Source of the DNA: a virus
Taxonomy: Duplodnaviria > Heunggongvirae > Uroviricota > Caudoviricetes
Direction: 5' to 3' (one strand)
Length of the DNA stretch: 64,000 nucleotides
Virus record (IMG/VR): IMGVR_UViG_3300037067_007156
Location: 77,519-141,518 of that record
Below the pieces are notes generated by a model that saw nothing but the letters and a program-made list of their open reading frames with translations, was not told the origin of the DNA and ran no database searches. Positions 303-61,960 of this stretch are shown here, in pieces (positions within the stretch are counted from its first letter, which is position 1; every line of letters begins with the position of its first letter). The position numbers and the translations under genes were made by a program.

Positions 303-713
303 TTAGAATAATTCTTTATTTAAAATTTCAACAATATATTGTACGGCTTTCTTTGTACCATTTAACATAATGTCGTATAAACTATAAACATTAGAGGGTA
401 TTTTATCCGTAAAATATCCTTTATCTTTTAAAAGCATATCTATATCATTTTTATATTTCAAATAAAAATTTTGAACATCTGAATCTTCTATGAAACCATT
501 AATTTTAACATTATCGACACCATTTTTTTCGATGTCGGATAAATAATTTTGAACATTAACGATTTCTTTTTTCTTATTTTCATCTAATGAAACATCTATT
601 AATAATAACACGCCACGTTTTAAAGATAAATATTTTTCAGATAATTTATCTTTTAACTGGTCATCAAGATTTTCATTTATGTTATAATATTGAGAAAACG
701 TTTTCATATTCAT
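303..713 (-). CDS. Hypothetical protein with capsid-targeting-like N-terminus (putative internal virion protein)
   Basis: N-terminus MKTFSQYYNINE resembles the T4 IP CTS MKTYQEFIAE; TTAATATATA motif at 727-736 upstream. Confidence 0.65.
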   Translation of the reverse strand: MNMKTFSQYYNINENLDDQLKDKLSEKYLSLKRGVLLLIDVSLDENKKKEIVNVQNYLSDIEKNGVDNVKINGFIEDSDVQNFYLKYKNDIDMLLKDKGYFTDKIPSNVYSLYDIMLNGTKKAVQYIVEILNKELF

Positions 714-746
714 AATTGTTTTTATTTATATATTAAAAAATAACAA

Positions 747-754
747 TATATTTG
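747..754 (+). promoter_or_regulatory. Bacteroidota-type sigma70 -7 element (TAnnTTTG)
   Basis: TATATTTG about 30 nt upstream of the ATG at 785; no clean -33 TTTG at the expected spacing. Confidence 0.4.
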
Positions 755-784
755 TATAATTAAACAAATGGCTACTTTTAAATA

Positions 785-1189
785 ATGGAAGAAAACATAG
801 ATATATTAATTCAAAAAATACAAGAGGTCAGAAACCCAAAATATTTTTTATGGCAAATCGTTAGAGAAATAGAGTGGTTTAGTTCTGAGGAATATAAAAT
901 ATGGTTGGTTGGGAAAAAAGATGAATATATTTATTTTAATTACGATACAAAAAATCATACTTTATATTATGATTTTTATAAAATCTATCAAATTTTATCA
1001 TTGAAATATCATCTTAACAATTTGGAAGCTAATAATTTAGTGAGTGATATGGTGGGTGAACAGTTCAAAATGAAGGTAAACACAACAAGTTGTTGCTGTT
1101 CATTTGTGCTATATTTGGTGGGTGAACAGTTCAAAATGAAGGTAAACACCAACATTAATAATGCATTACATAATTTCAACCATTGGTGA
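785..1189 (+). CDS. Hypothetical protein whose C-terminus is encoded by a CRISPR-like repeat array
   Basis: 134-aa ORF; VGEQFKMKVNT occurs twice, 22 aa apart, encoded by repeats 1 and 2. Confidence 0.75.
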   Translation: MEENIDILIQKIQEVRNPKYFLWQIVREIEWFSSEEYKIWLVGKKDEYIYFNYDTKNHTLYYDFYKIYQILSLKYHLNNLEANNLVSDMVGEQFKMKVNTTSCCCSFVLYLVGEQFKMKVNTNINNALHNFNHW

Positions 1190-58429: not shown

Positions 58430-58483
58430 ATATTCCAAAAATATTTTTTAAATTAAATATATAAAGAAAAATATATTTTTATA

Positions 58484-59854
58484 ATGAAACGTATTCACAG
58501 TTTTAATGATTTCAATTCAATAAATGAATCTGTATTTGGTAAATTCGAAGGTAATATTCAATATTCAGATTGGTCAGATTTTAGAGACAAATTAAGAAAT
58601 GCTGTATTAACTGGGTTTAATTCAATTGAAGAATTATTTTCTTTGATGAGTATGAATATTGAAACATATACCAAGATTAAAGAGCATATGATATTACATT
58701 GGAAAAATTCGGTATCTCAAAGTATAATTCACTCAATAGCTGAACTTAACTACAAAATACCAAAGAAAGGTACAAATATCTTTAAAGATTTAAAAACCCA
58801 AACTCAATTTTTAATATTAACATCGATTGGTTATCATTCAAGGGATATATATGGTGGAAATATGTCTGTTAATGGACTTGGATTATTGAATAAATTTGGA
58901 GATTTAGAAAAAGTAAAAAACACTGACCCGAAACAAACAGAACGAGATAGATTTACAAATAAAGAAGTGATGAAAAAATACGCATTAGTAGCAGGTACGG
59001 ATGCTTACACAGTTAAATCTGAAGAAAGTATTAAAAAAGTAAATAATATTTTACAATATATTTGGTTGTATATATTTTATAATCACTATATTTTGAAAAA
59101 AGGTATTAAAGAAAAAACTCATAAATTACCAAAATATCTTTATAGGGGAATTAGAGGAACCATGTGGCCAAAAGCTGAAAAAGCTATTGGTAAAGAATGG
59201 TCAGAATTAACCAAACTTTATACGGAAGCAAAAGTTAAACATAATAAAGTCATGCAAGAAAAATATGATTTGTTATTTGATTATATTATAAAAAATGGCA
59301 TTCACAAATTAACTGATGGTAAATTTATTTCTTTCACAGCCAGTATGCCTATTGCGAGATATTTTTCAAATAAAGATGGTTTTATTCTTAGAGTTGAAAC
59401 TTCGAAAGTAAATATAATATCCTCTGAGTTAACTGAAGATTTATTTGACCAAGAAGATTATGTAAGCAACAGAAAAGAACATGAATATATTATCGTTGTG
59501 CCTAAGAATTATAAATTTGAAAAAGATGATATCATAGTAACAGATGAAGATTATTTAATTGCAACTAATAATCCATTATGTGTTGGTGCATTTTCACATG
59601 ACACTAAAGAAGCTTATTACGATATGTTAGATGATAAAGGTGTTAAATGGAATGTAAATGCCTATTATGTTTGGACATCTAATGATAAAGGTGGTGTGAT
59701 TTATGCGGTCAAAAAAGATGATGAAGAAAGTTATAGTTGGGCAGAAGGAAGAAATAGTATTAAAAAAAGATTTGGTTTTTCTCCGTTACCAACCGAGGAC
59801 AATTTAGATAGAATATCCAATTTCAGGGTAAATGATGAGAAAAAAAGATGGTAA
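58484..59854 (+). CDS. R-S-E clade ADP-ribosyltransferase (Alt/Mod-like) with CTS-like leader
   Basis: YLYRG...FISFTAS...A..F...EHEYII; leader MKRIHSFNDFNSINE. Confidence 0.72.
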   Translation: MKRIHSFNDFNSINESVFGKFEGNIQYSDWSDFRDKLRNAVLTGFNSIEELFSLMSMNIETYTKIKEHMILHWKNSVSQSIIHSIAELNYKIPKKGTNIFKDLKTQTQFLILTSIGYHSRDIYGGNMSVNGLGLLNKFGDLEKVKNTDPKQTERDRFTNKEVMKKYALVAGTDAYTVKSEESIKKVNNILQYIWLYIFYNHYILKKGIKEKTHKLPKYLYRGIRGTMWPKAEKAIGKEWSELTKLYTEAKVKHNKVMQEKYDLLFDYIIKNGIHKLTDGKFISFTASMPIARYFSNKDGFILRVETSKVNIISSELTEDLFDQEDYVSNRKEHEYIIVVPKNYKFEKDDIIVTDEDYLIATNNPLCVGAFSHDTKEAYYDMLDDKGVKWNVNAYYVWTSNDKGGVIYAVKKDDEESYSWAEGRNSIKKRFGFSPLPTEDNLDRISNFRVNDEKKRW

Positions 59855-59908
59855 TCATTTCTTTTTACTTTATATTTTTATATATAGTTATAAAATATTT
59901 TTATTTTA

Positions 59909-61960
59909 ATGATTAACACAATTGTACTTAGCAGAGAAGAATTAAGTAATATCATATATAAACCAAATGGGCAACCAATACAACCCGATTTAGAAAATAT
60001 TATAAAATATTTTTTTTATCGTGACCTTCAAAAACCTATTCATAATTCATTTGAAAAATATGAACAAAGAATATTTTTTGTAGTTTTATTTGATAATAAA
60101 AATATTATAGGTTTATCTAAACTCGCAGAAAGCCCTTATCAACATAATTTATTTTGGATACAATATTTATCAATATCTGAAGAATATCAAAATCAACATC
60201 ATACAAGAAAAATGATAGAGATTATGGTTAAATTTTGTAAACAAAATAATTTCAGTTTAGAAACATCTGGATATTCAAAAAAAGGATGGGAAAGAATAAG
60301 AGATGTTTTACACAATTTTACTGAAGAATTAGGTGTAGAATTAATAGATAAAAAGGATAAACCTCAATATGAAAACGTTTTAAAATTTAATGAATTTAAT
60401 ATAAATGAATCAAACGAAAATGATTCAGATTTTTATAAAAAAATTAATTTAGATTTTGCAATCAGAAATAATGTAACAATTCATGATATAAACGGGGAAA
60501 AATTCTTACAGGTTTATCATGGAACAACACCAGTTAATTTTAAAAAAATATTAAAATCAGGTAAATTTAAAAGCGGAACTTTTTTCGCAATTGATTACGA
60601 AACAGCAAAAAAATATAGTCTAATGACTAATAATAGTGGTAAACCATATGTTTTTTCTGCTGTAATTAATGCTAAATCATTTTTTATTTCAGGGGATTAT
60701 TTAATAGCCAGATACGATTTATTTGAAAACAAACGTGGTATTGGTCATGGTGTTTATGAAAATAATATTAATACAAACACAGAAATGTTTATACCCGAAG
60801 ATATATTAGAATTTTATGACTTATTTTCTCATGCTGGATATGATTTATTTTTAGTTGGAGGTGTTGTTCGTGATTTTATCATGGGTAAAACACCACATGA
60901 TTATGATTTAACAACAAATGCTACGCCTGATATTGTTCAAAAAATATTAAAAGGTTATAGAACTGATTTACAAGGAGCACATTTTGGTGTTGTAAGAGTA
61001 TTTACCGATGATGAACCAAAAGGTTATGAAATAGCTTCTTACAGGCGTGATATTTCATCAGGTAGAAATACAAAAGGTGATGACCAGAAAGTTGAAATAG
61101 GTTCACATATCACTATTAAAGATGATGTTCTAAGAAGAGACATAACTCAAAATGCATTATTTTATGATATTGGTAAAAAAGAAATAATTGATTTAGTTGG
61201 TGGTATTGAGGATATTAAAAAAGGAATTATAAGAGCTGTCGGTAATCCAGAAGAACGTTTTAAAGAAGATAGACTTCGAATCTTGAGGGTAATGAGATTT
61301 TCTGCCCGTTCACATTTTAAAATTGATGAAGAAACAGCTAACGCTATTAAAAAAGATAACCAACTAAGTGGTATATCACCAGAAGAAGATGTTTCACAAG
61401 AAAGAATTCTGGAAGAAATATGGAAAATGTGGGAATACGCCTTTAAAAATAATGATTTATCAGCTTGGAAATTATATTTAAGATATTTAACTGGATTTAA
61501 AATGTGGAATCAAATGTTTAAAAACACTCTTATTAATGAGGATGTTATTAACATTGATAATTTAGATTTAATTCAGATGTATGCATATTTGTTTTTAGAA
61601 AATATTCCGAATGGTGATTTTAATAAAAGATTAATTAGGGAATTTAAATTCTCATCTGATTATGCTAATATTATTTGTTTTCTAATATCATTTTATAATA
61701 ATATTGGAAATGTTGAGACTGTATTTGATATGAAAAAGAAACAGAACCAATTTGATATTAATTCAGATATTATAAAAGAATTTTCAGAAATACATAATTT
61801 AGATAAAAAATTCACCAACAAATTCATTGAATATAATTTAACAGTATCAGGTCAAGAATTAATGAATTCTGGATTGAAAGGTAATGAAATTGGTATTGAA
61901 CAAAGGAAACAAGAAAAGAAAATTTTCCAAAAAATGATAAACGAATCTTTTGATTTTTAA
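59909..61960 (+). CDS. cca: Polyprotein: GNAT-like, ART-like (YHGT) and class II CCA-adding/tRNA nucleotidyltransferase domains
   Basis: LVGGVVRD...DYDLTT, RRD, DVLRRDITQNAL, RFKEDRLRILRVMRF; YHGT at 60515; IIGLSKL...WIQYLSISEEYQNQ; linker KFNEFNINE. Confidence 0.85.
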   Translation: MINTIVLSREELSNIIYKPNGQPIQPDLENIIKYFFYRDLQKPIHNSFEKYEQRIFFVVLFDNKNIIGLSKLAESPYQHNLFWIQYLSISEEYQNQHHTRKMIEIMVKFCKQNNFSLETSGYSKKGWERIRDVLHNFTEELGVELIDKKDKPQYENVLKFNEFNINESNENDSDFYKKINLDFAIRNNVTIHDINGEKFLQVYHGTTPVNFKKILKSGKFKSGTFFAIDYETAKKYSLMTNNSGKPYVFSAVINAKSFFISGDYLIARYDLFENKRGIGHGVYENNINTNTEMFIPEDILEFYDLFSHAGYDLFLVGGVVRDFIMGKTPHDYDLTTNATPDIVQKILKGYRTDLQGAHFGVVRVFTDDEPKGYEIASYRRDISSGRNTKGDDQKVEIGSHITIKDDVLRRDITQNALFYDIGKKEIIDLVGGIEDIKKGIIRAVGNPEERFKEDRLRILRVMRFSARSHFKIDEETANAIKKDNQLSGISPEEDVSQERILEEIWKMWEYAFKNNDLSAWKLYLRYLTGFKMWNQMFKNTLINEDVINIDNLDLIQMYAYLFLENIPNGDFNKRLIREFKFSSDYANIICFLISFYNNIGNVETVFDMKKKQNQFDINSDIIKEFSEIHNLDKKFTNKFIEYNLTVSGQELMNSGLKGNEIGIEQRKQEKKIFQKMINESFDF

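Follow-up and report, generated by a model that had tools for sequence, protein, structure and literature searches.

Background

The internal proteins of phage T4 bind the prohead core through a capsid-targeting sequence (CTS), and the protease gp21 cleaves core, shell and internal proteins alike on the C-terminal side of Glu; the capsid protein gp23 carries a propeptide of 65 residues that is also removed by cleavage after Glu (PMC5694885). These internal proteins are diverse defence proteins with only the CTS in common (PMC3012670), and gp21-dependent removal of the CTS of IPI-III and Alt is credited to Mullaney & Black 1996 where that study is cited in PMC5694885 and PMC3012670. The giant phages phiKZ, 201phi2-1 and SPN3US have about 50 head proteins, propeptides thought to target the prohead, and ejection proteins that enter the host (PMC5694885, PMC7411985), and no counterpart of the T4 gp22 scaffold was confirmed in the phiKZ-type giant phages studied in PMC5694885. 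Polyvalent proteins, in turn, are thought to be delivered with the DNA (Iyer et al. 2017, as cited in PMC7824862). Here we describe a short N-terminal leader on unrelated proteins of a huge phage, which on balance we read as a putative variant of T4 capsid targeting on a greatly enlarged scale. The stretch analysed, referred to as the window, comprises 64,000 nucleotides, bases 77,519-141,518 of a 639,979-bp virus record (IMG/VR IMGVR_UViG_3300037067_007156) with direct terminal repeats and a GC content of 25.7%.

Megablast returned short matches only, to the 'huge phage' records LR756504 (636 kb) and LR756501 (735 kb), and the head-module protease shares 57-70% identity with its counterparts in LR756501-4 and LR745206, which together place the phage among the relatives of the largest phage genomes published. 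The host is probably a member of the Bacteroidota, given the presence of Bacteroidetes-type signal peptides and -7 boxes (TAnnTTTG). The whole genome (G000) yielded 943 open reading frames (ORFs) with a crude caller, and three further genomes were used for comparison: a 482-kb phage (G007), a record of 347,857 bp with inverted terminal repeats (G008) and a 675-kb sister phage (G009).

A shared leader on unrelated proteins

The original prediction, made from the window, held that about 17 genes share a leader resembling the T4 CTS. The feature is real, but the count is too low, as about 95 genes of the genome carry it and it extends across a clade of huge phages. A position-specific scoring matrix (PSSM) was built from the leaders, with the initiator Met masked and a threshold of 8.93, and is passed by 95 of the 943 ORFs genome-wide, or about one gene in ten, as against 4.8 (maximum 12) for shuffled N-termini; the predicted excess over shuffled sequences thus holds in a scan of the whole proteome. 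In two further controls, the threshold was exceeded by 4 of 1353 out-of-frame ORFs and by 7 of 2278 internal Met positions treated as pseudo-starts. A pattern F[END]x[FY] beginning at residue 7 is found in 26 proteins, compared with about 1.3 expected per position. The downstream parts of the proteins are unrelated, as had been claimed: with the leader removed, the 95 proteins form 87 BLASTP clusters, 83 of them singletons, and the leader is therefore a shared tag and not the mark of a paralogue family. A paralogous family with a common N-terminal domain was rejected on the same grounds, since 83 of the 95 proteins show no similarity to the others beyond the first ~20 residues.

The conserved core reads aromatic-x-x-aromatic-[ILV]-N-E, or in its looser form aromatic-x-x-aromatic-[ILVM]-x-E with x mostly Asn. 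Two length classes can be distinguished, one with the first aromatic residue at position 4 or 5 (33 proteins; MKSYKAFINE, MKTFSQFINE, MIKNFRKFINE) and one with it at position 7 (41 proteins; MKYIKLFENF, MKHLKTFENF), often followed by [ILV]NE. The heptad [FYW]xx[FYW][ILVM]xE occurs 107 times proteome-wide, with 43 occurrences in the first 15 residues of proteins and 14 in a single protein, the protease-scaffold described below, where 13 recur with a period of 14 residues; the other ~50 are as many as chance alone would give (49.8 expected). A tripeptide h-N-E (h = I/L/V/M/F) is present in 40% of leaders, and some form of h-x-E in 80%. Recognisable Pfam domains begin downstream of the tag, for instance from residue 30 for ART-PolyVal and from residue 34 for NUDIX. 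By inspection, the leaders lack the character of Sec or lipoprotein signal peptides, being charged and amphipathic (K2, K5, E8, E13), and a true signal peptide in the window, at 26111-26656 (MKKFIILLLLFFSN), looks unlike them.

The closest match to this arrangement is the T4 CTS itself, which is likewise an N-terminal tag on unrelated proteins, of 10-13 residues here, with the same heptad shape (YQEFIAE in T4). In the T4 record NC_000866, ipII and ipIII begin MKT-YQEFIAE, and the N-terminal region of gp23 contains FGSFLTE ending at residue 65; both strings fit the pattern aromatic-x-x-aromatic-[ILV]-x-E. The differences lie in number and detail: about 95 carriers per genome as against a handful in T4, a P2 residue that is mostly Asn, and a commonest form (MK[YH][IL]K.FE.[FY]) that is three residues longer. 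Furthermore, the present system has internal and C-terminal copies of the tag, and it is known from sequence alone. Among internal matches to the leader matrix, 5 of the best 23 lie within ~15 residues of a C-terminus (~9% expected); these are located at 48210-49037 (minus strand) in the window and at 593617-593871, 511658-511966, 404549-405322 and 289840-290403 in the genome, and may represent C-terminal tags or relics of gene fusion.

Recognisable domains are confined to about 13 of the 95 leader proteins, and Pfam searches of all 95 matched just 13 families. The cargo domains include ART-PolyVal (three proteins), Acb3 (an inhibitor family directed at the cyclic oligonucleotide-based antiphage signalling system, CBASS), SprT-like, NUDIX, ASCH and several DUFs, and the 95 leader proteins include no replication, packaging or tail proteins. 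Some enzyme domains are thus present, but the 'diverse enzyme set' that the original prediction had the phage inject is an overstatement, because so few of the proteins have a recognisable domain. An ADP-ribosyltransferase among the cargo recalls T4 Alt. Similarly, ART-PolyVal, GNAT and SprT-like domains are those of polyvalent proteins, and a GNAT, ART and CCA-adding chain encoded at window positions 59909-61960 is of that kind, whereas most effectors here are separate small genes with their own tags in place of one giant multidomain chain. Leader genes are no more variable than others between G000 and G009, with homologues for 78% of them compared with 73% of other genes, and the analogy with the T4 'hyperplastic locus' is accordingly unsupported.

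The prohead protease, its scaffold repeats and the capsid protein

The head module occupies 621.7-628.6 kb of the genome and encodes a portal (phrog_213), a protease-scaffold fusion and the major capsid protein (phrog_138). The fusion, an 804-residue chain at 624524-626938 annotated as 'head maturation protease' (phrog_207, E = 1.8e-25), consists of a protease domain (residues ~22-170), thirteen 14-residue repeats (residues 261-463) and a C-terminal domain. The repeat consensus is Y-x-x-Y-[LIV]-A-E-x-[LV]-D-x-x-I-x, with YSEY[LI]AENLDKxI in the 804-residue chain, such that the leader heptad recurs as the unit of the scaffold. There are nine h-N-E sites in the fusion where 1.5 are expected (P = 3e-5), and the P1' residue is mostly N or S, both here and after leaders. 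Across an alignment of 40 protease homologues the consensus retains seven h-N-E sites, including GLxLNE/S (residues 17-21; the slash marks the putative cut) and an SLNE/S that closes the protease domain. The capsid-protein propeptide carries QMNE/N (residues 40-43), which aligns with SLNE/S in the 30%-identical capsid protein of G007, and Tenacibaculum phage PTm1 has TINE/N and IINE/S. That one motif is present in the leaders, in the head scaffold and in the propeptide of the capsid protein suggests that an unusually large number of proteins would be loaded into the virion.

The assignment of the head protease to the T4 gp21/S77 type is well supported by sequence comparison. GEFDHP and SSRAAG are invariant in the 40 homologues, and T4 gp21 has GELNHP as the counterpart of the former; we take these to be the His and Ser catalytic motifs of Peptidase S77. 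With 30.8 bits against S77, the copy in G007 (42% identity) exceeds the curated cut-off of 27. Databases hold 1477 homologues, many with a precomputed PF03420 assignment, and the fusion is kept as a chain of ~700-850 residues in more than 1400 metagenomic proteins. Tblastn with the protease found the 'prohead core scaffolding protein and protease' of PTm1, XacN1 and hundreds of T4-like cyanophages (gp21). A phmmer search of the protease domain against PDB sequences gave no match, Pfam S78 and HK97 Phage_capsid were not found in the genome, and a related-locus search with the single protease sequence returned two near relatives only.

The T4 gene order 20-67-68-21-22-23 matches the order of portal, protease-scaffold and capsid protein here, and by position the 804-residue chain corresponds to gp21 plus gp22. 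As in T4, the tag motif recurs at the maturation site of the capsid protein and the protease belongs to the S77 family; unlike in T4, protease and scaffold form one chain, and the scaffold is a 13-fold heptad repeat. The fusion is a candidate equivalent of gp21 and gp22 for huge phages. The claimed likeness to the T4 CTS and link to a gp21-type protease are therefore borne out in the shared heptad, the S77-family protease, the h-N-E sites and the promoter class described below. The giant phages phiKZ, 201phi2-1 and SPN3US also have a gp21-related protease that cuts after Glu (PMC5694885, PMC7411985), but their propeptides are mostly longer than 100 residues, share no common sequence tag and are cut at A/S/G-x-E sites; only 8-19 proteins are processed, and a scaffold counterpart was not identified there. 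Two genes resembling homing endonucleases flank the head genes (genome 627016-629844 and 623528-624415), one on the opposite strand, where it separates portal and protease, and the other directly after the capsid-protein gene (phrog_12131).

Promoter-like motifs upstream of leader genes

The sequence T[AT]ATATATA is found 20-40 nucleotides before the start of 42% of leader genes compared with 12% of other genes (odds ratio 5.2, p = 1.5e-11). The same motif precedes the genes for the capsid protein, the tail sheath (phrog_34521), a 1233-residue tail protein and several large virion-like proteins. Conversely, the Bacteroidetes -7 box TAnnTTTG, which precedes genes of nucleic-acid and NAD metabolism (SbcCD, RtcB, NAD synthetase, NAMPT), lies before 3% of leader genes and 16% of others (p = 2e-4). 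Because the first motif is enriched and the second avoided, leader genes belong with virion genes. The upstream signal of this class can be described as T-rich sequence plus TAATATATA, 20-40 nucleotides upstream, and recalls the T4 late promoter, TATAAATA. Examples of the promoter-like classes in the window lie before 6200-9901 (minus strand), 31525-34140 (minus strand) and 50661-52904 (plus strand).

Distribution of the leader among phages

A degenerate DNA pattern for MK[YH]hK.FE.[FY] matched at least 120 IMG/VR stretches; those listed have up to 11 copies per locus and GC contents of 22-46%, and are mostly fragments that CheckV rates 10-33% complete. The same pattern gave 105 matches, mostly single, in 596 Gb of prokaryote genomes. 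Residues 11-13, on which the pattern places no constraint, are h-N-E in 22% of the IMG/VR matches listed and in 0% of the GTDB matches, and E13 is present in 46% of the viral matches listed as against 8% of the cellular ones. Five huge-phage genomes contain 9-31 strict matches to the DNA pattern each, with none for the reversed control, and the codons of their leaders are free to vary synonymously. In the sister phage G009, 119 of 1095 ORFs are leader-positive, and the leader is kept in 65 of 74 orthologues while non-core positions change.

The strict 10-residue DNA pattern was not found in LR756501, Lak-C1, PTm1 or the cultured Chryseobacterium phage MA9V-2. In LR756501 the short form is present in 28 of 239 ORFs examined and the long form is absent; Lak-C1 and PTm1 show no excess. 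Phage MA9V-2 (OR513085, 218 kb), which infects Chryseobacterium indologenes MA9, carries 10-residue leaders on at least four unrelated small proteins: MKNFFSFINE/A, MKTFTYFINE/A, MKTFFTFVNE/S and MKNFFQFINE/S. The gene for MKTFTYFINE/A is located just upstream of the protease gene, and that for MKTFFTFVNE/S just after denV, where T4 has ipII. Furthermore, the MA9V-2 capsid protein has WSEFINE/A at residues 18-24, and its protease-scaffold contains about 19 h-N-E sites. The two phages thus have in common MK[TN]F..F[IV]NE/[AS] leaders, the motif in the capsid protein, an h-N-E-rich protease-scaffold fusion and a Bacteroidota host (probable for the phage of the window), whereas MA9V-2 has a 218-kb genome, a handful of carriers and only the short, T4-length form. 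The 10-residue leaders are not described in the MA9V-2 paper (PMC13414440), and literature searches returned no prior description of the leader strings or of capsid targeting in huge phages.

Neither S77 nor the protease profile found a match in G008 or in seven IMG/VR fragments with leaders. These negatives carry no weight, since G001 lacks the whole head module and the capsid-protein match in G008 reaches only 21 bits. Weak Gp23 matches in G001 were rejected as spurious, because sugar-nucleotide enzymes lie at those positions.

A capsid-targeting reading and its rivals

The pathway that would account for these observations runs as follows. Late in infection, the amphipathic leader of 10-13 residues would dock its carrier onto a prohead core made of the 804-residue gp21-type serine protease and its thirteen-repeat scaffold, which bears the leader heptad. 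The protease would then cut after the leader Glu, at an h-x-E site of the kind it would also use on the scaffold, on itself and on the propeptide of the capsid protein. Mature carriers would remain in the head, exit with the DNA and presumably act early, which the original prediction took to mean before transcription. We put the probability that the leader is this phage group's counterpart of the T4 CTS, operating by a capsid-targeting and propeptide mechanism, at roughly 0.65. In such a system the leader proteins would probably be injected together with the DNA. The broader proposition, that a clade of huge Bacteroidota phages (~480-735 kb, including LR756501) packs about 100 proteins per genome by means of a tag mimicking the scaffold repeat and injects them, is put forward more tentatively, and we would not bet on it at even odds. 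The mechanism is known from T4; new here are the scale of its use, the Asn-type site, the existence of a longer form, a scaffold that repeats the leader heptad and the occurrence of the tag across huge phages.

Several observations sit uneasily with capsid targeting. About 100 distinct packaged proteins would, to our knowledge, exceed the content of any characterised phage head. The protease of the window phage itself scores only 13.9 bits against Pfam S77. Sixty percent of leaders are without h-N-E, a cut in many members of the MKYIKLFE.[FY] class, if made at all, would have to fall at LFE or TFE, and depletion of h-N-E from the mature parts of leader proteins is not significant (p = 0.28). 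The promoter-like motif also lies before some non-structural genes (homing endonucleases, TnpB-like genes), and 'late' is thus a provisional label for the T[AT]ATATATA class. Finally, G008 has nine strict leaders, but a protease homologue went undetected and the capsid-protein match is the 21-bit one mentioned above; either its head module is very divergent or the record is incomplete.

The best-surviving rival, which we regard as unlikely, holds that the leader is a substrate or propeptide signal for the protease and that its carriers are accessories of the prohead core or of assembly, degraded or structural, and not delivered effectors. The heptad is after all the unit of the scaffold itself, small scaffold-repeat proteins exist, and the carriers are mostly small proteins without assigned function, some of them encoded inside tail or baseplate operons. 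Against this, carriers include ART-PolyVal proteins, an Acb3-family CBASS inhibitor, NUDIX and a CCA-adding polyprotein, a cargo that makes sense only if it acts on the host cell, as T4 Alt and IPI do (PMC3012670). Less probable still is that the leader addresses late proteins elsewhere, to the membrane, an assembly factory or a chaperone, with a merely convergent likeness to head motifs. Such an address would suit an amphipathic helix and the leaders of G008, which occur without a detectable S77 protease; it does not explain why the heptad, the P1 Glu and the P1' preference are identical in scaffold, protease and capsid-protein propeptide, or why the leader matches the experimentally defined T4 CTS.

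Composition, paralogy and a signal at the RNA level were ruled out as explanations by the controls. A nucleotide-level start signal, either a translation enhancer or an mRNA element, could draw on the AT-rich start region and on Lys AAA as the second codon, a frequent feature of efficient starts, yet it is highly improbable: synonymous codons vary (AAA/AAG, TTT/TTC, GAA/GAG), residue 4 may be I, L or V, substitutions are conservative in the protein (F/Y, I/L/V), the motif is kept across GC contents of 22-46% and also occurs internally and at C-termini, and out-of-frame ATG ORFs are without it. That the leader is a chance product of K/N/F/Y/I/E-rich composition at 25% GC can be dismissed as negligible, for although its residues are among the commonest in the proteome, it is in ~20-fold excess over shuffled N-termini, reaches only 0.3% each in decoy ORFs and at internal-Met starts, and the reversed DNA pattern has 0 matches in five genomes.

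Leader genes and their neighbours in the window

All 15 N-termini quoted in the original prediction were found as written in ORFs of the window, with coordinates that refer to the low ends of ORFs, such that leaders of minus-strand genes sit at the high end. Twelve score above 8.93 (those at 303, 11275, 12608, 13123, 15108, 27658, 28401, 39680, 41128, 49034, 49924 and 58484); 49600 and 14395 are borderline, and 21813 is weak. The two copies placed away from N-termini, at the C-end of 48210-49037 and in the linker of 59909-61960, also proved real.

On the minus strand, 303-713 encodes a DUF7222 protein of 136 residues with the leader MKTFSQYYNINE/N at its high-coordinate end (PSSM 9.9), whose true start is likely the third codon, as in the sister genome. 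Three adjacent minus-strand genes follow: an ART-PolyVal ADP-ribosyltransferase of 446 residues (11275-12615; MLKNFYSFMNE/R, PSSM 17.0, domain E = 1.2e-22), a NUDIX hydrolase of 170 residues (12608-13120; MKNYKQFLE/N, PSSM 12.1) and a DUF6576 protein of 171 residues (13123-13638; MKFLMLFEEY, PSSM 14.2) with the promoter-like motif TTTAATATATA upstream. Also on this strand are a 197-residue protein with a TTG start and the borderline leader MAIIKSFNDF (14395-14988; PSSM 7.7, below 8.93) and a 169-residue protein (15108-15617; MENLTGFNSF...KLNE/G, PSSM 9.8) preceded by TTAATATATAA. The 274-residue coiled-coil or membrane-like protein at 17236-18060 (minus strand; MLEFLKKIVKFF) passes the matrix but is likely a false positive, because its orthologue does not. 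The 308-residue product of 21813-22739 (plus strand; MISSYKYFITKILE), at 3.1, is probably not a member.

Two minus-strand leader genes adjoin tail genes: 27658-28404, the last gene of the baseplate-wedge operon (248 residues; MKKFEEF, PSSM 17.8), and 28401-28991 (196 residues; MVKLYYEFLYE/K, PSSM 13.0), just downstream of the baseplate-wedge gene 28994-30856. Further along are 39680-39994 (plus strand, 104 residues; MKYIKLFENY, PSSM 18.2) and 41128-41394 (minus strand, 88 residues; MKYIKVFERF, PSSM 13.4, with TTAATATATA upstream). Next to the latter, 40813-41082 (minus strand) encodes an 89-residue protein made of three prohead-scaffold repeats (SISYSEYIAENLDK..., E = 3.6e-15 to the scaffold repeats), a candidate small prohead-core protein.

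A run of four minus-strand genes comprises 49924-50214 (96 residues), with the full leader MKVKTFEIFINE/N (PSSM 19.8); 49600-49920 (106 residues; MLGYNNFLLE/K), at the threshold with 8.9, where the heptad fits; 49034-49600 (188 residues; MEKLKFIKTFEAY, PSSM 18.9); and 48210-49037 (275 residues), in which the leader-like copy LKHIKRFNEFKK (PSSM 16.7) ends the protein and is followed by a terminator hairpin. On the plus strand, 58484-59854 encodes a 456-residue protein with the leader MKRIHSFNDFNSINE/S (PSSM 14.3). Downstream of it, 59909-61960 (plus strand) encodes the GNAT, ART and CCA-adding polyprotein of 683 residues, with the internal copy ENVLKFNEFNINE at residue ~160 (PSSM 12.5) in a linker that reads ...VLKFNEFNINE/S at residues ~155-168, and with MINE/SFDF towards its C-terminus. 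Both h-N-E sites are conserved in G009, whose counterpart (397784-400267) is 843 residues long and has a ParB-like domain inserted inside the leader-like linker. The retention of INE/S and M[IL]NE/SFDF in the longer polyprotein is as expected if these sites are domain boundaries cut by the protease.

Some other window genes were assigned by their N-termini only. The 430-residue ORF at 23968-25260 (plus strand), starting MLKAIKIRLYPNKNQ, is TnpB-like of the IS200/IS605 type, with similar N-termini at genome position 333678 and looser ones at 391922 and 504551. The gene at 39984-40367 (plus strand) resembles a CheY-like receiver (ILYVEDD), and more receiver-like starts are found elsewhere in the genome. 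On the minus strand, 41773-42600 resembles a GIY-YIG homing endonuclease and 42668-43633 a thymidylate synthase (MKQYLDLMKKIKDEG...NRTGVDT).

Implications

Should the tag function as it does in T4, all proteins that the largest known phages deliver from the virion would be marked by a single short motif, and hundreds of 'hypothetical' huge-phage genes, mostly without a family, would be placed in a class of proteins present in the cell at infection. The virion would then bring in a ready-made arsenal whose diversity exceeds that of T4 or phiKZ by an order of magnitude, made up of ADP-ribosyltransferases, a CBASS-inhibitor homologue, NUDIX, tRNA-repair enzymes and dozens of uncharacterised proteins. 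The occurrence of the same tag in the cultured phage MA9V-2 makes the idea directly testable, and the tag could, if so confirmed, be used to find new anti-defence and host-takeover proteins in metagenomic data. Furthermore, mimicry of the scaffold would provide a mechanism by which the prohead core recruits cargo, and giant phages of a separate lineage would gain, in the 804-residue fusion, a candidate for the role that gp22 plays as scaffold in T4.

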